DNA from: a virus | DNA length: 51,046 nt | Virus genome (UHGV): UHGV-1266211 | Reading direction: 5' to 3' (one strand) | In this document: positions 3,593 through 10,845 of the stretch, piece after piece | How positions within the stretch are numbered: position 1 is the stretch's first letter | Layout: every line of letters begins with the position of its first letter | The notes under the pieces: generated by a model | What the model saw: only the letters and a program-made list of their open reading frames with translations | What the model was told of the DNA's origin: nothing | The model's database searches: none | Translations under genes and position numbers: made by a program

Positions 3593-6403
3593 TTATGCCT
3601 GAGTACGCAGCGCTTCAAGGCGGCGCAGGTCGAAGTCGTTCAGTTCGTCGGTGTAATCAGCGGTGATCGGCGCTGGCCATTCGCCAGTGTCAAAGCCGGT
3701 AGCGATAGCGCGCATCGCCTTGCGGTACTCGAGCATGCCCAGCTCTAGCAGTTCAGCGGATGCCTCGATGATGGCGATCCAGTGGTAGTTCTCGTCTTTG
3801 TTGACGAAAATCCAGAAGAACTGGTCAAGTGCCGCGGTCTCGCAATACATGGCGGCGCTCAGGTGATAGTCACGGTCGATGATTTCCCGGTGCAGTTTGG
3901 CGCGCAGACCTTCCTGCTTAATGTTCCACATGCTGATGGTTTTAAGGTCGGCACCGATGCGTACCCCGTCCAAGTCGATCTCAAGGTCAGGACGCACGCG
4001 GACTTCAAGTCCGGTTTCGTCGTCAAAGCCAAAATAGCTCACCTCAACAGCGCGGCTCGGATGCTGAAGCAGCATCCCGGCGGTTGGGTGCTTTAGCAGG
4101 GCTTTCTGAATGGCCAGTGCGGTGCTCAGCTGCTGGCGGGTGACCAGCACTTTCCCATGCGGATTCTCGCGCCACGCATCCAACAACTCGTCGGCGAATA
4201 CGGCTTCCGGATTAACAGACTTCACGGCCTGAATCAGGTCTGATTTGGTACCGGACACTTTCAGTGGTTGGGGCTTCTGCGCCTCCTGTGCAACCAAGTC
4301 AGGATTGATGATTGCCAGCTGCTCGAGCAGCGCGTCACGGCTACCGCTGGTTTTCACCTGCGGCGGCAGGGTGGCGTTGTACTCTTTGATGCAGGCTTTC
4401 ATCGCCGCTGCGGTCTGCTTCTGGTCCGCTTCGATCCGCTGGTACTCTTCTGGCAGCGACATGTAGCTCTGGCCAGTTTCCTCGACTGAACCACCCAGTG
4501 GCACCTGAGCAGGCAGTGTGGCGTTGTATTCTTCCAACAACGCTTTGATGTCGTCGGCGCTCAATTGCGCTGGCAGGCTGGCGTTGTACTCATCGATAAA
4601 CGCGCGGATTGTTGCCGTTGTGGTGAACGCGCCTTCCGGGATCATCGGTTCAACGCTGAACTCTTCATCAAGCTGCTCTGGCTGCAACGCAAGGCCGTGC
4701 ACCAGGTTACCCATGTCCAGTACCGGAGAACGCTCTTTGGTGATCGTTTTGGCAACGTGGCGCGCATTGAAGTACATCAGCGATACACGCGCATCTTTCA
4801 CCTGGGTTGAGCTGATACCGTTCGCTGCGTGATAAACCTCGTTCGGCAACCCTTCATAGCGGCCTGGCTCAAAGTAAGCAGGGTAAACAACAGCCGGTTC
4901 GTCAGAATGAGATTCTGGCTCGGTTTGTGCCGCAACTGGTTCAGTTTGGTTTACAGAATCGCTGTTTTGGCTAACAGAATCCGCATTCTGGTTTACATCG
5001 GCCTGCTGGCCGGTATGTGACTCTTCACCAGTTTCCAGACTGCTTTCTCCTGACTGCACTTCATCACCAGCCTGTTCTTCATCACTGACAGTTTCTTCCA
5101 TCTGCACATTGCTGGTGGTTTCCTCATTAAGTGGTGAACGGTCATCTGTTTGTGTTTGTTGATCACCCATCAGGCCATCAATGGAGAATACGCCGTTGCC
5201 CATGTTGGCGATTTGTGGCTGTTTAGCAGCTGTTTTCTGCTCTGCAGCGACCTGCTCATTAAACTCATTTTCCCAACTGACGTCCGGCGCATGACCAGCA
5301 TCAGCCAGCGTTTCTTCTGAGGGGTTTGAGTGGTCATTTTCGGTTAGATTGGCATTGATATATGCCCGCAACCGCCCAGGAAAGTTAACCAATTCGGATG
5401 ATGTGCCGCGGATGAGTGCAAAGATGGCGGCGCGTGAATAGTCCAGGATGCCAGCGGTTTTGCGCAGCGCCTCAGACCATTCGCTGAACGGACTTTCTTT
5501 CTTGCTGACAATCTCTTTAGCGCGGCGGTAGACCCCACCAGGTATGTCGTAGATATTGAAATCCATTGGCAAGGTGGCCAGCGCAATTTCAACATCCAGA
5601 GTGTCCAGTGTGTGGACGTAGTCGGTATTGCGATCGGTCTTATTTCCACCGCCAGCATTGGTTTTGACGTCAGTGCGTTGAATCTGCACAACACGGTTGC
5701 CTTTCTGCCATTCCTTGACCAGCAGGCCACGGTCGATGTAATCAGTGTTGAACCACACCGTCAGGAACTGGATAACTGTTGCCAGTTCCGGTTTTTTACC
5801 GTCGACAGGGAAGGCTTTCTTAACGGCATTCACGACTTTATGGATATCGTGCTCAATGGCTTTTTTGAATGCTTCCACATTCTCAGCAGCCAGCAGCAGG
5901 TTTTGGGCGTACGCGTTATCAGTGTCCATCTCAAGGCGGACAATCTCGTTTTTCTGACCAGCGTCGACGTGATAGAGATATTCACCATCACCGATGAACT
6001 GAGCCAGTACGCGCTGACGGAATGGCAGGGTGGCAACGACGATCAGGTTCGGCTGCTCTGACTGCTGAGATTCTTCTGCGGTGCTGTCTTCAGTATCCGC
6101 GTCGTCGACAGACTCATCTTCAGCCTGTTGTTTAACATTCCAGGTGCGCTGGTCTTCAGCCAGTTCGTAACGATCGCACCATGTGAAATCAACTTCGCCT
6201 TCTTCTGGCAGGTCGTTGTACACCGGGAAATCAGTGCGAATAGGTTTGGCGTAGTCCTTACCACGGCCGGTTTCGATGCCTGCATCTTCCAGTGCAACAT
6301 CCAGCTGCAGGTTGGCGCGAGCCTCGGTTTTCGCAGTGAACCAGACCACTGCATCTTGTTTTCCGGATTTCTGAGTGGCTTTAACCACATTAAAGAATTC
6401 CAT
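3593..6403 (-). CDS. recE: RecE-like exonuclease VIII (large, C-terminal nuclease domain)
   Basis: 936 aa, acidic low-complexity N-terminal two-thirds and globular C-terminal domain, directly upstream of the annealing protein as in Rac recE-recT; contains three tandem ~20-aa repeats (EYNA[ST]LP[AP]Q). Confidence 0.7.
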   Translation of the reverse strand: MEFFNVVKATQKSGKQDAVVWFTAKTEARANLQLDVALEDAGIETGRGKDYAKPIRTDFPVYNDLPEEGEVDFTWCDRYELAEDQRTWNVKQQAEDESVDDADTEDSTAEESQQSEQPNLIVVATLPFRQRVLAQFIGDGEYLYHVDAGQKNEIVRLEMDTDNAYAQNLLLAAENVEAFKKAIEHDIHKVVNAVKKAFPVDGKKPELATVIQFLTVWFNTDYIDRGLLVKEWQKGNRVVQIQRTDVKTNAGGGNKTDRNTDYVHTLDTLDVEIALATLPMDFNIYDIPGGVYRRAKEIVSKKESPFSEWSEALRKTAGILDYSRAAIFALIRGTSSELVNFPGRLRAYINANLTENDHSNPSEETLADAGHAPDVSWENEFNEQVAAEQKTAAKQPQIANMGNGVFSIDGLMGDQQTQTDDRSPLNEETTSNVQMEETVSDEEQAGDEVQSGESSLETGEESHTGQQADVNQNADSVSQNSDSVNQTEPVAAQTEPESHSDEPAVVYPAYFEPGRYEGLPNEVYHAANGISSTQVKDARVSLMYFNARHVAKTITKERSPVLDMGNLVHGLALQPEQLDEEFSVEPMIPEGAFTTTATIRAFIDEYNASLPAQLSADDIKALLEEYNATLPAQVPLGGSVEETGQSYMSLPEEYQRIEADQKQTAAAMKACIKEYNATLPPQVKTSGSRDALLEQLAIINPDLVAQEAQKPQPLKVSGTKSDLIQAVKSVNPEAVFADELLDAWRENPHGKVLVTRQQLSTALAIQKALLKHPTAGMLLQHPSRAVEVSYFGFDDETGLEVRVRPDLEIDLDGVRIGADLKTISMWNIKQEGLRAKLHREIIDRDYHLSAAMYCETAALDQFFWIFVNKDENYHWIAIIEASAELLELGMLEYRKAMRAIATGFDTGEWPAPITADYTDELNDFDLRRLEALRTQA

Positions 6404-6542: not shown

Positions 6543-6704
6543 TTAGCCTTCGTGAGCCATCTGGTCGTGCGAAGCGCAACGTTTGGAGCAATACTCTTTC
6601 TCTTTGCGCGCCAGCAGTGAGCCGTTGCGATAGAGAAGGGTGCTTTTGATTACCTCTTCCGGTTTAACCGGTTTGCTGCAATAACCGCATTTCTTGTCTT
6701 GCAT
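6543..6704 (-). CDS. Small Zn-ribbon protein (YdaE-like by position)
   Basis: 53 aa, MQDKKCGYCSKPV...CSKRCASHD; GGAGAG RBS 6 nt upstream of ATG; not in ORF track (<60 aa). Confidence 0.4.
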   Translation of the reverse strand: MQDKKCGYCSKPVKPEEVIKSTLLYRNGSLLARKEKEYCSKRCASHDQMAHEG

Positions 6705-6715
6705 GACACTCTCCG

Positions 6716-7081
6716 TTAATGGCTGAGGCCATTCCCCAGACCGTTCAGATAAACTTCAACCAGCAAATCCCTGGTGTAAGTCATCTCAACGCCGCGATGC
6801 AGATACAAACGACCACGAGCATTGGCTGATGCCGTCCAGGTTGAATCCTTGTGTTTGACGAGCATCCCCGGCTGAACTGCGCCGCGGTTTACTGTCTGTG
6901 TACCGTAGTGCTGATGAACCATGATGTTCTCCACTATTGCTGAGTGAACTTCGCTGGTGGTGCCGTGGTGCTGATCTTCACAGTTGAGCGTTTTAACTCT
7001 GCAGTTCACCACCGCGAAACCCACTCTTATGTGCCTGTCTTTTATCCACTTCAGGCTCGGTGGTATGCTGGTAGTTCTCAC
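6716..7081 (-). CDS. Hypothetical early protein (start uncertain; GTG at 7081 or internal Met)
   Basis: ORF in leftward early operon; no recognisable motif. Confidence 0.4.
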   Translation of the reverse strand: MRTTSIPPSLKWIKDRHIRVGFAVVNCRVKTLNCEDQHHGTTSEVHSAIVENIMVHQHYGTQTVNRGAVQPGMLVKHKDSTWTASANARGRLYLHRGVEMTYTRDLLVEVYLNGLGNGLSH

Positions 7082-7101: not shown

Positions 7102-7395
7102 ATGAAATCAGTAACTAAGCCATGTCCTATTTGTGGTGAAGATTCTTTGTCTTTTAACCAGACAAATCAGTTGGTTAACATCAAAGTAAAACCACCAACT
7201 ATTCGTGAAGTTCCATCAGTGGTTTACGTTTGCGATACTCACGGATGGTTTTCACTTTCAGAACAGATAAACAGACTCGTCACATCTAATGACGACCCTG
7301 CGGCTAAGCAAAAACTGGCTGTTATTGTCAAAGAGCGATATGTGCCGGAACAGGATCAGCCGTTAGCCCTGAAACCTATTGAGTCGCTCGCATAA
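7102..7395 (+). CDS. Zn-ribbon protein (CPxCG ... C.THG)
   Basis: 97 aa, AAGGA RBS 9 nt upstream; opposite strand to the surrounding early operon. Confidence 0.45.
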   Translation: MKSVTKPCPICGEDSLSFNQTNQLVNIKVKPPTIREVPSVVYVCDTHGWFSLSEQINRLVTSNDDPAAKQKLAVIVKERYVPEQDQPLALKPIESLA

Positions 7396-7645
7396 GGTCT
7401 TTTCGGCTCTCGCTGCGATATCCCAGGCGGTACATTTTCACGTAGGCTTTGCCGCGAGGAATGCCGCCTGTTTTGTTGAATCTCTGCTGGGCGCGGCGAT
7501 GGTGTTTTGCTTCAGGGCTGTTTGAACCTTTCCCGCCATTCGATCGAGAACTTGGGAGTTGCATTGGCTTTTGGCGTGAATAGAATTTACGTGCCCAGCA
7601 TGCTCCAAAGCCGATCATGCCTGTTTTCTTCGTATTACCTTTCAT
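7376..7645 (-). CDS. Putative first gene of the leftward early operon (N position); identity unsupported
   Basis: 89-aa basic, low-complexity ORF about 80 bp downstream of the OL-like operators; may be spurious. Confidence 0.25.
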   Translation of the reverse strand: MKGNTKKTGMIGFGACWARKFYSRQKPMQLPSSRSNGGKGSNSPEAKHHRRAQQRFNKTGGIPRGKAYVKMYRLGYRSESRKDLMRATQ

Positions 7646-7727
7646 CTCAATCCCCTCGTTTGCCCTTGTCGCCAGGCCAGCGGAACGTTTGAACTTGATG
7701 CGCTTAGTGTTTCTCGATGGGGTGATG

Positions 7728-7766
7728 ATAGCTAAGGCGATTTATTTTATCAATCGCTTAAACGAT
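7728..7766. promoter_or_regulatory. OL-like operators (two near-copies of ATCGC-N4-GCGAT)
   Basis: ATAGC-TAAG-GCGAT at 7728-7741 and ATCGC-TTAA-ACGAT at 7753-7766, same motif as the two perfect sites between cI and cro. Confidence 0.35.
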
Positions 7767-8094
7767 AATATTGTGATTTTGCCGATTATTATTTGATTTA
7801 TAAAGTGATTTATTTTTGTATGAGATGCGTGATATGCTCAAAAAAACACCAGGCGGGGATATTGATATGGGTTTAGGAATGGATATGTCACGTGATGAGC
7901 TGCTGGAAGATCGCGCTGCTTTCATGGCTGGCGAGATTGGCGGTGCAGTTGTCGAGTAGATAATCAACGGTGTGGTGATAAGTCGAGATGCGATAGTAGA
8001 TAGCTTGGAGACTAAGCGTCGCGCGGTTGGAAATGTGATTCACAAAGGAGTGTTGTGGGATGTCACTGCTATGGTGAGAAAAGGAATATGAAAA

Positions 8095-8109
8095 CCGGCA
8101 TAATGCCGG
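8095..8109 (-). terminator. Hairpin immediately after the stop of the cI-operon membrane protein
   Basis: ccggcat-a-atgccgg perfect palindrome; short T-run on minus strand. Confidence 0.4.
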
Positions 8110-8110
8110 T

Positions 8111-8743
8111 TTACTTTGATTTTTCCTGTTGGTGAAGTACTCGTGGAGTAGTTGGTTCTTGAGGTAATTGGATGATAACAGGTTGCTGCGCTACTGGTTG
8201 AACTACGGGCGGATCACTCTTCAAGGCAGAAACAAGACTAGGTAATGCAACGACAACCGCAATGATAACGCCAAAAATAGCAAGCCTAGTGGAAATACCT
8301 GATTGAATACCGCCAATCGCAGTGTTTATTCCTGTAATTTGCCCTTGTATACCTTCGAATTTGCCATTGATGGCTTTTACATCCCCATCAACGCTATCCA
8401 TTTTCCCTTCAATTTTAGAAGAAATAGAGCTAATAGATGAATTGAGCGATGCCAGCTGAACGTTCATATTCTCGCGTGACAAAGCCATTTCAGCTCTAAT
8501 CGAAGATGCAATGGACTCCATCTCCGCCTTATTGGCAGCTAGAAGTGCTTGCATTTCTTCACGGCTAACTGATGACATTTCATTTCCCCCATCAGTTTCA
8601 TTAGCTTCATCTGTTGATTTGATAAAGTTAGTATACATTTCTTCTTTATCGACGCGTAGTCTGTTTTGAACATTGGGGTACAGGTCATCTTTATCAATGC
8701 CAGAACCGCAGTCTGGGACAGCTTTGAGAGATGGGCCCATCAC
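8111..8743 (-). CDS. Coiled-coil protein with single C-terminal transmembrane helix (rexB/sieB-position gene)
   Basis: 210 aa; long heptad-like Ser/Ile-rich segment then IFGVIIAVVVALPSLVSAL; start overlaps upstream stop (ATGA). Confidence 0.7.
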   Translation of the reverse strand: MMGPSLKAVPDCGSGIDKDDLYPNVQNRLRVDKEEMYTNFIKSTDEANETDGGNEMSSVSREEMQALLAANKAEMESIASSIRAEMALSRENMNVQLASLNSSISSISSKIEGKMDSVDGDVKAINGKFEGIQGQITGINTAIGGIQSGISTRLAIFGVIIAVVVALPSLVSALKSDPPVVQPVAQQPVIIQLPQEPTTPRVLHQQEKSK

Positions 8744-9102
8744 TTCCCATCCTCTCCTTGATCTTCTTTTCTTTTATTAATCAGTGTCCTGGCTTTTTTA
8801 TAAGAAAAAAGCAGTACATGTGCGCAGTGATCACACGTGATTCGAAATAGTGGCATACCGCCAGGATATGTCACAGCACTATCAGTATCAGGTTTGTATT
8901 GTGCATAACTAAGTGTTTCGATCACATGATGTTTTGGCTGATTTTCTTCTACATCAAGATCAAAGGCACCAACTACAGACCATGACTGGTTCCCGCAGAT
9001 TTGGCAAGTTATTGGTTTTTTGAATGAATTTATGAAATCAATGAACTCATCCGCTGTGATAATCTCGGAGTTTGCTTCACTATGAAATAATTCCGATTTC
9101 AT
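8740..9102 (-). CDS. Zn-ribbon protein (rexA-position gene)
   Basis: 120 aa from Met with AAGGA RBS; CQIC ... CDHC pairs; immediately downstream of cI, same strand. Confidence 0.65.
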   Translation of the reverse strand: MKSELFHSEANSEIITADEFIDFINSFKKPITCQICGNQSWSVVGAFDLDVEENQPKHHVIETLSYAQYKPDTDSAVTYPGGMPLFRITCDHCAHVLLFSYKKARTLINKRKEDQGEDGK

Positions 9103-9146
9103 AATTATGATCCTTTTCTGGGCCAAAGTAGATAAAAAGTACAGTT

Positions 9147-9830
9147 TTACAATCGGTTATACTTTATTGATTCATGAATCAATGCCTTACCCATTACGTA
9201 GAGTTGATCCTGATTACCTTCGTTAATGTACCACTTCTCATAAGCTGAGTTATCAGACAAAACTGCCAACCTATCGCCCTGCATCTGCAAGCGCTTCACA
9301 TGGAAATGTTGTCCGAAAACGAACGCATAAACACCGTCGACCTTGAAGTTTCTTACAGAAATATCGAAAAACAATCTGTCACCAGACTGTATAGTTGGAC
9401 ACATGCTGTCGCCATCGACCGTCATTACTTTTACGTCTTCCTGAGAACGATTTCCGAAGAGTGAACGAGCGTGTTCGGTTGTGAACTCAATGGCGTGTAG
9501 AACCTCAACAAACTCAGAAATCATGAAAGAACCTGGCCCCGCGCTAAATGTCAGGTCAAGTACGTCAACTCTGAATATGTTTGAGTCTTTTTTTGTCGCG
9601 GTAATGGGAGGCGGTAGCTGGCCATCGTTACGCATCGGTCCGGATCCCGTGGAAAGCCATTCAGGGCGAACATTGAGAACAGAAGCTATCTCGACCGTTT
9701 TTCTTGAGCTTGATGCACCATTTAGCAGCTTGTTAACACTTGACTGTGCCATGCCAACTGCCTTAGCTAGCTTGCCCTGTGTATAACCCGCCTCATTCAT
9801 TGCGCGATCTAATCGCTCAGAAAAACTCAT
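9147..9830 (-). CDS. cI: CI-like prophage repressor (HTH-XRE N-terminus, S24 LexA-like peptidase C-terminus)
   Basis: N-terminal ...GYTQGKLAKAVGMAQSSVNKL HTH; C-terminal ...DGDSMCPTI...KR catalytic Ser/Lys pattern. Confidence 0.9.
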   Translation of the reverse strand: MSFSERLDRAMNEAGYTQGKLAKAVGMAQSSVNKLLNGASSSRKTVEIASVLNVRPEWLSTGSGPMRNDGQLPPPITATKKDSNIFRVDVLDLTFSAGPGSFMISEFVEVLHAIEFTTEHARSLFGNRSQEDVKVMTVDGDSMCPTIQSGDRLFFDISVRNFKVDGVYAFVFGQHFHVKRLQMQGDRLAVLSDNSAYEKWYINEGNQDQLYVMGKALIHESIKYNRL

Positions 9831-9863
9831 TAAAGATACCCCCTAATAACCTTCATAAATATT

Positions 9864-9904
9864 ATCGCCACAGCGATTAATAAGCAAAAAATCGCATAGG
9901 CGAT
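9864..9904. promoter_or_regulatory. OR operators: two perfect 14-bp palindromes ATCGC-N4-GCGAT
   Basis: ATCGCcacaGCGAT 9864-9877 and ATCGCatagGCGAT 9891-9904 in the cI-cro divergent intergenic region. Confidence 0.55.
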
Positions 9905-9959
9905 TGACATTCGTTAAAGCGATAAACATAATCAACCTAAATTGATAGAAGGAGCGATT

Positions 9960-10190
9960 ATGAAAAACCCTGCTGTAGAAAAAGCGATTGCAATCGCCGG
10001 TAGTCAGAAAGAGCTAGCGAAGCGATGTGGTAAGGCCCAATCCACGGTCTGTGACTGGTTAAATGGGAAAAAACAAATCTCCCCGATCCATGTTCCTGTT
10101 TTGGTAAAGGCAAGCGAAGGACAGATTCAAGCTCATGAATTCCGTCCCGACCTTCCTGAATTGTTTCCGCATCCACATTCAGCCGCCTGA
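9960..10190 (+). CDS. cro: Cro/YdaS-like HTH regulator
   Basis: 76 aa, AAGGAG RBS; ...GSQKELAKRCGKAQSTVCDWLNGKK HTH; divergent from cI. Confidence 0.75.
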   Translation: MKNPAVEKAIAIAGSQKELAKRCGKAQSTVCDWLNGKKQISPIHVPVLVKASEGQIQAHEFRPDLPELFPHPHSAA

Positions 10191-10221
10191 CCGGCGGCGC
10201 TAACCATCAAGGGAAAGCACT

Positions 10222-10761
10222 ATGCAATCACTTACGTTTTACCAGGATACAGGATTGCCGCAGCAGGCGGTGATAAATCGTGCTCAAGCGTGCAAGGGAC
10301 CTAGCCATGAAGATATTCGTGATGCCGTTCGCTCATGGGCGGGTGTAGATGGTCAGGATGTCGTTTCTGCTCTGATCATCGAAGAGTACCAGGCGCAGGG
10401 TGGTGATGACATCACTTTCCCTGATGATCTCTGCCGAAAGCGCCAGAAGCTGTTTCGCTTCCTGGACAACCACTTCAACAGCGAGCGTTACCGCGAGAAC
10501 GTCCGCCAGCTGACTCCGGCAATCCTCGCTGTCCTGCCGATTGAATACCGCAATCGTCTGCTACCAGAAGACAACGTAATGGCTCGTCTGGCAAGGCTGG
10601 AGAAGGAAACCAGCGAAGCGAAGATTGCTGTCGCAATGGATGCGCCACGTCATCAGAAGCTGAAAGAGTTGAGCGAGGGGATCGTGGAGATGTATCGCGT
10701 TGACCCTGGGTTAACCGGTCCGTTGATGGAAATAGTGCAGATTATGCTGGGGGCTATATGA
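10222..10761 (+). CDS. YdaT-like regulator (CII position)
   Basis: 179 aa; ...LTPAILAVLPIEYRNRL resembles the Rac YdaT family; follows the cro-like gene. Confidence 0.55.
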   Translation: MQSLTFYQDTGLPQQAVINRAQACKGPSHEDIRDAVRSWAGVDGQDVVSALIIEEYQAQGGDDITFPDDLCRKRQKLFRFLDNHFNSERYRENVRQLTPAILAVLPIEYRNRLLPEDNVMARLARLEKETSEAKIAVAMDAPRHQKLKELSEGIVEMYRVDPGLTGPLMEIVQIMLGAI

Positions 10762-10845
10762 CCGGTTCAAAAATGGCGAAAGCCGCGGTGCTCGAACACC
10801 AACGGCTTTCAGGTGCAAAAACAGTGCGTAATTGCGGAGAACAGT

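Follow-up and report, generated by a model that had tools for sequence, protein, structure and literature searches.

The virus genome UHGV-1266211 (51,046 nucleotides (nt); this whole stretch of DNA is referred to as the window) contains a two-gene cassette, ORF1-ORF2, in the immunity module of a Rac-like lambdoid Escherichia coli prophage. The two genes follow the cI-like repressor gene directly on the minus strand, and encode a small zinc-ribbon (Zn-ribbon) protein and a membrane-anchored coiled-coil protein, respectively. The gene anatomy is conserved in other prophages, the protein modules are shuffled between loci in both directions, ORF2 carries a conserved internal start signal, and the pair occupies more than one genomic niche. 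We tentatively interpret the pair as an autonomous, mobile accessory cassette that is expressed in the lysogen and may act as a head-stalk-anchor module of exclusion or abortive infection. This reading is a plausible one that still falls short of being probable, and we infer the defence function and the whole mechanism from the features described below.

The minus-strand order comprises the right operators (OR) with a cro-like gene, cI, a 44-nt spacer, ORF1, ORF2 and a hairpin terminator, and the left operators (OL) and left promoter (PL) are located beyond the terminator (Table 1). The gene order together with these signals is the pattern of a lysogenic operon, of which cI is presumed to be the first gene. 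Neither a terminator nor a promoter-like site was found by scanning the gap between cI and ORF1, and cI, ORF1 and ORF2 are probably co-transcribed in the lysogen. The pair is thus positioned directly downstream of cI, as is rexAB in the maintenance operon. The original prediction, made from the letters of the sequence, had placed a Zn-ribbon and a coiled-coil gene in the rexA-rexB slot, and our analysis agrees with it in gene order, minus strand, cI neighbour and the nature of both products: both genes are found on the strand of cI, between cI and OL/PL, and the terminator comes after ORF2. The predicted hairpin at the operon end was also recovered, and it reads as a bidirectional intrinsic terminator. 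The OL-like operators proposed at 7728-7766 have palindromes in common with OR and adjoin a PL-like promoter. In line with the AT-rich island noted before, the guanine-cytosine (GC) content of ORF1 and ORF2 is 40.8%, while the window as a whole has 51.8%, recE 53.6% and the replication genes 55.3%, and the AT-rich block stops exactly at the terminator. One detail needs correction: the stop/start overlap is not ATGA. The junction between the two genes reads GGGAAGTGATGGGCC, and the overlap is GTGATG, which corresponds to GTGA (4 nt) with the GTG start of ORF2 or to TGATG (1 nt) with the ATG start annotated in RefSeq.

The order repressor, small partner and ORF2 homologue is found in about 50 loci across Enterobacterales (Escherichia, Enterobacter, Klebsiella, Kosakonia, Cedecea, Yersinia, Salmonella and Xenorhabdus), a strongly positive outcome for the co-occurrence downstream of repressors that the original prediction had proposed to check. 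A scan of IMG/VR with the ORF2 alignment yielded 40 usable loci, two of them with damaged copies. A small ORF precedes the ORF2 homologue in 39 of the 40 loci, mostly with a 4-nt overlap and in some cases with an overlap of 11 or 17 nt. An S24-type repressor gene lies 400-1250 nt upstream on the same strand in 35 loci and a short helix-turn-helix repressor gene in two more, and the full arrangement of repressor, small overlapping partner and ORF2 homologue is present in 37 of the 40. The same order also stands behind other, unrelated repressors, as observed in eight of nine further contexts looked up by protein, or in nine of nine when the E. coli RefSeq locus L049 is counted. In phages HK542 and HK244, which possess lambda cI, PRM, PL and N, a 144-residue protein and a 206-residue ORF2 homologue (70% identical over residues 55-200) are located exactly at the rexA-rexB position. 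Among 5426 complete E. coli genomes, the ORF2 family occurs in 63 (1.2%), in single copy, always on the chromosome and always annotated as "hypothetical". On plasmids only two weak matches from Providencia were found, covering half the core, and a profile scan of genome contigs with the ORF2 alignment gave pattern matches and no confirmed relative.

In 12 loci (L007-L017 and L023, approximately at 3996-4337), a 113-residue DUF3024 gene (Pfam, 2.4e-31) is inserted between cI and the HK542-type partner; along its entire length it corresponds to PDC-S43, a candidate for phage defence in PADLOC (7e-42). These 12 loci suggest that the slot after cI gathers defence-associated cargo. Phage HK446 (L045) harbors a further uncharacterised occupant of this slot, a 134-residue gene at 7183-7587 that overlaps the end of cI by 4 nt and resembles Sf6 gene 38. 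It has no solved relative, and by sequence it is not Rip1, whose complex (9oox) comes from the same phage.

The pair occupies a second niche in Xenorhabdus-type phages, namely a variable island between the tape-measure and the distal-tail/baseplate genes. The pair or the core alone is present there (L037, L041, L042 and L048), with anti-repressor genes and lipoprotein-like ORFs as neighbours, and this location looks like a moron or exclusion island. The partner in L048 and L041/L042 is a phrog_4293 Zn ribbon only 24-26% identical to ORF1, and the effector in L041/L042 is 32-35% identical to ORF2. Beside the pair, these islands (L041 3412-4340; L042 2173-4385 and 6099-6863; L037 4056-4901) contain several anti-repressor (Ant/ORF6N) genes and two or three ORFs with lipoprotein-like signals. 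Because the same pair is found in the tail-gene islands, the cassette is a self-contained moron rather than a part of the cI circuit, and a dependence of the cassette on cI was rejected on the same ground.

Comparison with L003, L006 and L049 delimits the cassette. Nucleotide homology spans 8091-9547, from the terminator to the point within cI where the C-terminal domain begins, and is lost outside these limits. The part of cI encoding the C-terminal S24 domain (9147-9547) is co-inherited with the cassette at 79% nucleotide identity, whereas the DNA-binding half and the operators differ, which suggests that recombination within cI joined the sequences for its two domains. The cassette is judged self-contained and mobile, with the terminator as its right-hand limit.

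The co-inheritance with the cI C-terminal domain in three loci would also suit a role outside defence, for the prophage itself or for host physiology, in which the pair tunes the lysis-lysogeny switch or induction, or serves as a membrane scaffold or stress factor like DUF1640/CCDC90 or the tail-anchored coiled coils ElaB/YqjD. RexA and RexB were reported to help the lysogen pass to lytic growth, with T4rII exclusion as a possible by-product (PMC11077077). Moreover, neither protein matches a defence model in PADLOC, and variant effectors described below score 28-29 bits against the CCDC90-like Pfam family, just under its threshold of 33.5 bits. We nevertheless consider a non-defence role rather unlikely, since the same pair is found far from any repressor in the tail-gene islands and also behind unrelated repressors, and since a patchy distribution and the combinatorial exchange of heads and effectors typically mark conflict systems, not switch components.

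ORF1 encodes a protein of 120 residues (13.6 kDa, pI 5.5), which is the cytoplasmic head in our model. Its ATG at 9102 is preceded by the Shine-Dalgarno (SD) sequence AAAAGGA; a TTG start at 9126 (128 residues) was set aside, as the homologues begin at MKSELF. The protein has the motifs CQIC at residues 33-36 and CDHC at residues 90-93, and a C-terminal helix at residues 101-119. The four cysteines of these two CxxC knuckles are the sole invariant columns across 17 members of the family. ORF1 matches phrog_4293 of unknown function with an E-value of 2.5e-33 (residues 3-118 on profile positions 3-123 of 124). The family is rare, as a word-based search of 5.8 billion proteins returned 4 relatives, or 7 with a profile, and an exhaustive HMMER scan of 1.84 billion cluster representatives returned 14 (E<=1e-3), all of them stand-alone proteins of 86-126 residues. 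A tblastn search of ORF1 against phages gave no relative, and the family profile found nothing significant among the sequences of solved structures, where hybrid-cluster protein appeared at E>1.

ORF2 is composed of an N-terminal extension, a first helix, an Ile/Gly-rich heptad zipper, a single transmembrane (TM) helix and a tail. It matches phrog_5820 of unknown function (1.4e-70, residues 8-208 on profile positions 2-198 of 200) and has 35 homologue clusters in Escherichia, Enterobacter, Klebsiella, Kosakonia, Cedecea, Yersinia, Leclercia, Serratia and Salmonella. The zipper is the most conserved segment. Its heptads are clean from residue 119 to 153, with 90% hydrophobic I/V/F residues at the a and d positions (V,F,I,I,I / I,I,I,I,R). 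The top Kyte-Doolittle 19-residue windows are at 154-156 with a mean of 2.66, the best stretch being residues 154-174, and AlphaFold2 (AF2) predicts helices at 61-114 and 129-146 and a hydrophobic one at 149-172. The coiled coil and the one TM helix expected by the original prediction are therefore both present; the TM helix is not terminal, as a tail of 36 residues follows it. Since ORF2 has no signal peptide and a single C-terminal TM helix, it is probably tail-anchored, with the coiled coil in the cytoplasm and the tail outside, presumably in the periplasm. Differences from an 80%-identical homologue follow a purifying codon pattern in the core, with 61 of 91 at third positions. The PHROG matches, this codon pattern and the identical copies of the segment in five of the 5426 E. 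coli genomes indicate that the ORFs are more than chance.

The pattern h-[ST]-[RK]-x-E-[LIM] is found at the start of the core helix in 31 of 31 full-length homologues, as VSREEM in the window and as, for example, ISREEL or FTKTEL elsewhere. It resembles the beta-layer consensus [aliphatic]-A-T-K-[polar]-[DE], which caps trimeric coiled coils and was reported at the start of the DUF1640 stalk (PMC4786415); we treat this resemblance as a lead and not as a result. The Ile residues at both a and d positions, together with the beta-layer-like cap, lead us to regard the stalk as probably a parallel trimer. A profile of the ORF2 family found nothing significant among solved structures, where trimeric coiled coils such as HA2 and sigma-1 appeared at E>0.03.

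The TM helix and the QP(I/V)IIQ(V/L)PQ motif of the tail are highly conserved whatever the partner, which would fit an exclusion of superinfecting phages at the envelope that the cell survives. The anchored trimer would then halt other siphophages as they inject their genome across the inner membrane: the TM helix and the QPIIIQVPQ tail would stop, for example, the insertion of tape-measure or ejection proteins, and the head would only regulate or localise the complex. The existence of a core-only version without a partner (L037) and the proximity of the cassette to tape-measure genes and lipoprotein-like ORFs agree with such a block. This location recalls the HK97 gp15 moron and exclusion genes of the Cor/Llp type. 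However, the known injection blockers are single membrane proteins that need no exchangeable cytoplasmic partner, the diversification of the cassette is on the cytoplasmic side (partner and N-terminal extension), and the periplasmic tail has just 36 residues, so that we regard envelope exclusion as a rather unlikely explanation.

A predicted second start site is located directly before the conserved core of ORF2, where the window reads GAT GGG GGA AAT GAA ATG. The duplex of its SD sequence with the anti-SD has a free energy (dG) of -8.4 kcal/mol versus an ORF mean of -1.4, and is the best among the nine start-type codons in ORF2. All 21 nucleotide representatives retain an ATG or GTG, located 0-4 codons upstream of the core. 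The dG of the internal SD ranges from -5.4 to -12.7 kcal/mol in 20 of them and is -2.7 in L036, compared with ORF-wide means of -1.3 to -2.5, and the site ranks first among start-type codons in 18 of the 21 (2, 2 and 4 in the others). Among the 31 full-length homologues, the residue at this position is Met in 25 and Val in 6, and Val is encoded by GTG in all four cases with DNA (L007, L024, L034 and L053). Gene callers picked the internal start in L046 (P0012, 154 residues) and L054 (114 residues), where longer ORFs overlapping the partner stop exist nonetheless, and genuine core-only genes begin at the same place (L037, 146 residues). The long start has almost no SD (dG +1.8 to -2 kcal/mol) in nearly half of the representatives, yet it overlaps the partner stop, by 1 to 56 nt across the loci and by exactly 4 nt in most. 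The weak upstream SD combined with this overlap suggests translational coupling of the long form. The preservation of the internal SD and start in all representatives points to a long, partner-docking isoform and a short one. In the simplest reading, the long form would be made in step with the partner and the short form independently.

The strength of the internal site also invites the opposite view, that the extension is untranslated, only the 155-residue protein is made and ORF1 is an independent neighbour without a physical link. The choice of the gene callers in L046 and L054 and the weak constraint on the extension would be in line with it. We hold this view to be highly improbable. The frame of the extension is open for 46-115 codons in every class (the other frames have 1-10 stops), whereas by composition 55 open codons are expected with P about 0.025, and each class reaches P about 0.025 or less. 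Differences in the extension are also enriched at third positions (89 versus 61 and 53), much less so than in the core. In addition, the overlap with the partner stop is kept, motifs such as RLKVVGGSDFEAEFDNS are conserved at the protein level across genes of 58-70% identity, and the class of extension tracks the partner family even when the C-terminal half of the effector is swapped. The N-terminal extension is thus a predicted coding sequence, and two ORF2 lengths are assumed below.

Partners of the ORF2 core belong to four unrelated families. Family I consists of the Zn ribbons (window, L003, L046, L041, L048, L050, L054, L060, L061 and L064), family II of HK542-type proteins of 143-162 residues (phrog_5893; L019, L024, L034, L039 and L051), family III of proteins of 98-101 residues (L035/L052 and L038) and family IV of proteins of 84-92 residues (L036 and L047). 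The class of the ORF2 extension (about 50-115 residues) co-varies with the partner family, as exemplified by LKAVPDCGSGIDKDDLYPN where the partner is a close Zn ribbon and RRLKVVGGSDFEAEFDNS where it belongs to family II. At L054, L060 and L061, ORF1 homologues with 47-51% identity are followed by chimeric effectors, which keep the class-A extension and the first ~45 core residues and have their C-terminal half replaced by a phrog_14825 segment with a TM helix at the very end. Two of these chimeras (L054 and L060) score 28.1 and 29.0 bits against the CCDC90-like family PF07798, below the cut-off. Moreover, the Zn ribbon of L064 is paired with a 118-residue tail-anchored coiled coil of phrog_6324. 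Partner and extension are inherited together, and the membrane end is exchangeable. Since partner and extension travel together, the extension probably docks the partner, and ORF1 would accordingly bind residues 1-55 of ORF2. This two-way shuffling of modules is compatible with the small sensor and membrane effector of the original prediction.

The cognate pairing implied by the co-variation of partner and extension could also belong to an addiction module resembling a toxin-antitoxin pair, in which ORF2 is a membrane toxin, the upstream partner is its antidote, the prophage is stabilised and exclusion is secondary. The small upstream gene overlaps the downstream gene for a membrane protein, and it is order and overlap only that are compatible with a type II-like module. 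Dual-start membrane effectors with inhibitory long forms are known among holins, which offers a precedent. Such a module is improbable, because a core-only gene persists without a partner (L037), the short isoform would lack the docking site and escape the antidote, no autoregulatory DNA-binding domain is present, and the partner-binding region is the least conserved part of ORF2.

Both proteins were searched against Pfam, NCBIfam, PADLOC-DB 2.0, PHROGs, PDB and by fold. Neither ORF passes the threshold in Pfam, NCBIfam, PADLOC, PDB or the fold searches, and the family and structure searches revealed no homology to housekeeping or structural proteins, which leaves the original prediction intact on this point. 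Its statement that neither protein belongs to a described family holds as regards function; both are members of PHROG families (4293 and 5820) of unknown function. Baculo_PEP_C, DUF1664, NPV_P10, MakE and tape-measure PHROGs were rejected as homologues, being sub-threshold coiled-coil noise. The other partner classes and effectors gave no match in PADLOC, where the sole real match is the neighbouring DUF3024 gene of other loci. The searched literature on HK542/HK244, rexAB-slot hotspots, phage DUF1640 and Zn-ribbon/coiled-coil defence does not describe the pair.

According to the mechanism that we propose, the prophage would express the pair from the cI operon during lysogeny, and the products would assemble at the inner membrane into a head formed by ORF1, a cytoplasmic coiled-coil stalk of ~95 residues and a C-terminal TM anchor. 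The long ORF2, coupled to the ORF1 stop, would dock ORF1 through its 55-residue adaptor, while the short ORF2, with its own strong SD, would begin exactly at the stalk cap and remain headless. The exchangeable head would recognise a phage-derived cue in the cytoplasm near the membrane, and the signal would pass down the stalk to the Ile/Gly zipper, the TM helix and the periplasmic tail. This segment would then compromise the membrane, leading to Rex-like abortive infection, and its threshold would depend on the balance between the long and the short isoform, in the fashion of holin and antiholin. We favour a Rex-like triggered membrane effector on two grounds: the diversification is cytoplasmic, and membrane proteins with dual starts typically determine when firing occurs by setting a threshold. 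Features that fit systems of phage conflict are the location at rexAB, the behaviour as a moron, the patchy occurrence, the shuffling in both directions and the presence of DUF3024/PDC-S43 in the slot. A lysis function was rejected on the operon position; ORF2 is not in a lysis cassette, and the holin genes of the related prophage lie about 10 kb away beside a GH19 endolysin gene. A more far-reaching proposal, which we regard as doubtful, is that the cassette represents a class of prophage immune modules not described before, in which unrelated plug-in heads (the Zn ribbon and three other families) are mounted non-covalently on a trimeric tail-anchored stalk of interchangeable effectors through a co-evolving adaptor, the dual start sets the ratio of headed to headless subunits in the trimer and with it the firing threshold, and a cue is passed over ~13 nm to a zipper/TM bundle that opens or blocks the membrane.

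Several observations weigh against a triggered abortive-infection module. Neither protein shows homology to defence proteins in the searched databases, and in PADLOC ORF1 has no match and ORF2 matches only PbeC, at a chance-level E of 0.019. The conserved periplasmic tail is not obviously needed by a depolarising effector and suits an envelope-level block better. The N-terminal extension is nearly neutral in evolution, and the internal SD and start could in part be left over from fusion events that recurred at an ancestral start codon; a core-only gene does exist (L037). The structure predictions have low confidence, with a predicted local distance difference test (pLDDT) score of about 60, and the trimer and the beta layer are proposed from sequence patterns and one paper (PMC4786415). 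In addition, genes in the rexAB slot can instead act in the switch of the phage that carries them, which was reported for RexA (PMC11077077).

Table 1 Features of the cI-ORF1-ORF2 region and the adjoining left operators in the window. Conservation is the mean column conservation in the ORF2 family alignment.
Feature	Position (nt)	Strand	Residues	Description
cI-like repressor	9147-9830	minus		HTH_3 PF01381 8e-8; Peptidase_S24 PF00717 5e-17; phrog_4 1e-57
ORF1, Zn-ribbon partner	8740-9102	minus	120 in total	
ORF2, long form	8111-8743	minus	210 from GTG 8743 or 209 from ATG 8740	
N-terminal extension	8579-8743	minus	1-55	conservation 0.19; length 0-115 residues in other members
Internal Shine-Dalgarno GGGGGA	8585-8590	minus		6 nt upstream of internal ATG
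ORF2, short form (putative)	8111-8578	minus	155 from ATG 8578-8576	conserved core only
Core N-cap motif VSREEM	8552-8569	minus		family pattern h-[ST]-[RK]-x-E-[LIM]
First helix			56-118	conservation 0.67
Ile/Gly-rich membrane-proximal heptad zipper	8285-8389	minus	119-153	conservation 0.82, highest segment
Single TM helix	8222-8284	minus	154-174	conservation 0.73
Pro/Gln-rich tail	8114-8221	minus	36 in total	after TM helix
QP(I/V)IIQ(V/L)PQ motif	8162-8188	minus	186-194	conservation 0.70 versus 0.32-0.35 in flanking tail
Hairpin AAACCGGCA-TTA-TGCCGGTTT	8092-8112			followed by TTTT on minus strand; overlaps TAA stop of ORF2; predicted bidirectional intrinsic terminator
OL operators	7728-7741, 7753-7766			ATCGC-N4-GCGAT-type palindromes, matching OR at 9864-9905
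PL, sigma-70-like promoter	7753->7725	minus		TTGATA-17-TATCAT (promoter scan)

The segment 8111-9126 is 100% identical in the five E. coli genomes mentioned above, where it belongs to a prophage beside kch with int, recT, recE, ydaE, a LexA-family repressor gene, ydaT and the Q antiterminator gene. Near-identity (98.5%) to the kch-adjacent prophage is limited to 7659-10818 of the window, and the remainder is mosaic. A megablast search of the immunity region against isolated phages gave no match.

Beyond the terminator, the window contains ~330 nt with an opposite-strand pseudogene, then OL/PL and the early-left genes phrog_29236, kil, ydaE and recE. The pseudogene is a phrog_3975 gene (7e-33) at 7885-8091 on the plus strand, with an upstream in-frame ATG at 7816. 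It is located between the cassette terminator and OL, is convergent with ORF2 and uses the same terminator. An in-frame TAG at 7960-7962 breaks the gene, and RefSeq annotates a pseudogene with an internal stop at the equivalent locus. The first ORF after PL (7376-7645, minus strand) encodes an Arg/Lys-rich protein of 89 residues belonging to phrog_29236 of unknown function (1.5e-56); it sits where an N-like antiterminator gene would, and RefSeq leaves this frame unannotated in the related prophage. On the strand opposite to the PL operon, a 97-residue CxxC Zn-ribbon ORF (7102-7395, plus strand; phrog_31519, 1.7e-60) is not present in the otherwise related E. coli prophage L001. Its similarity to the ORF1 family phrog_4293 (E 0.01) and to Lar restriction alleviation proteins (E 0.03) is weak, and it could be a further accessory gene of small size. 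The early-left operon is Rac-like, with the Kil septation inhibitor at 6716-7081, a YdaE-family protein at 6543-6704 and a RecE-like exonuclease at 3593-6403 (936 residues with a long acidic low-complexity insert), all on the minus strand. As phrog_294 covers only residues 48-120 of the 121 of the Kil ORF, its real start is probably internal.

The rexAB slot of lambda is the oldest known site of prophage-encoded phage exclusion, and its occupants in other lambdoid phages are largely uncatalogued. The cassette provides a cloneable candidate of ~1 kb that the cultured phages HK542 and HK244 carry, as do about 1% of complete E. coli genomes, and "hypothetical" is the present annotation of both its proteins. 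A two-gene exclusion-type cassette beside cI in a prophage is of a well-known kind, and the architecture, which combines exchangeable heads with a tail-anchored, probably trimeric stalk and a dual start that is conserved, appears to be undescribed. If it acts in defence, it would define a family with a separate and naturally swappable sensor and effector, the specificity rules of which are testable by head exchange, and it would open a first way into the function of anchored coiled coils of the DUF1640 type in prokaryotes. Otherwise, the pair would still mark a conserved membrane complex expressed in the lysogen.

Among known systems, alpha-pore-forming toxins of the ClyA family show a weak similarity. 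ORF2 weakly matches MakE (NCBIfam, E 1.8e-4) and SmhB (PDB, E 0.48) over the coiled coil and hydrophobic helix. The MakE match has 20.6 bits, whereas the NCBIfam cut-off is 360 bits. These similarities are most likely driven by composition, and we take them as no more than a lead for a membrane-active effector. The resemblance to DUF1640/CCDC90-like proteins (PF07798; MCUR1 and CCDC90B) concerns the predicted order of an N-terminal part, a beta-layer-type cap, a stalk and a C-terminal TM helix, and the variant effectors paired with ORF1-type partners, which approach the family score, have the first ~45 core residues in common with ORF2. ORF2 itself is not listed for PF07798 even at E<=1, and the head of the cassette is a separate, swappable gene product instead of a covalent domain. 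DUF1640 members occur in prokaryotes (PMC4786415; Adlakha et al. 2019). As these have no described function, this comparison is uninformative on what ORF2 does.

Two in-frame starts in one gene give a long and a short membrane protein in P22 SieB/Esc and lambda S107/S105, where the two products are antagonistic and set a threshold; SieB is a prophage gene of exclusion or abortive infection from the early-left region. The conserved internal SD and start of ORF2 suggest a similar pair of products, and if the cassette acts in defence, it would be a second example, besides holins and SieB/Esc, of isoform-ratio control in a phage membrane effector. Unlike these systems, ORF2 has no SieB- or holin-annotated PHROG among its matches, its isoforms would differ by 46-115 residues that apparently dock a second protein, and it is located in the cI operon and not in a lysis cassette with endolysin and spanin genes. 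HK97 gp15 is a prophage moron of the exclusion kind with its gene beside the tape-measure gene, as is the pair in L041, L042 and L048. Like gp15 and Rip1, the cassette consists of small accessory genes in HK-type lambdoid phages that are expressed, here presumably, from the prophage, whereas gp15 and Rip1 are single-gene systems. Twelve copies of the prophage protein Rip1 from HK446 were reported to cap an 11-subunit terminase complex of the incoming phage, and a pore-based defence was suggested (PMC12908700).

A parallel in organisation is lambda RexAB. The Rex system excludes superinfecting phages, for example T4 rII, by depolarising the membrane. RexA and RexB are transcribed from PRM and physically interact, RexA being a 31-kDa RdgC-like DNA-binding dimer and RexB having four TM helices (PMC11077077). 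No sequence or fold relation to ORF1 or ORF2 was found. In contrast to RexA, ORF1 is a Zn ribbon of 13.6 kDa, for which Pfam, PADLOC and PDB gave no link to RexA, and ORF2 has one TM helix behind a long coiled coil in place of the four of RexB. Rex has neither exchangeable partner families nor a reported internal start of this kind. On the other hand, both systems occupy the slot directly after cI on the same strand, before OL/PL and with a terminator at the end, and both consist of two genes with the soluble product first and the inner-membrane product second. In HK542 and HK244, the ORF2 homologue and its partner physically replace rexAB behind lambda cI.

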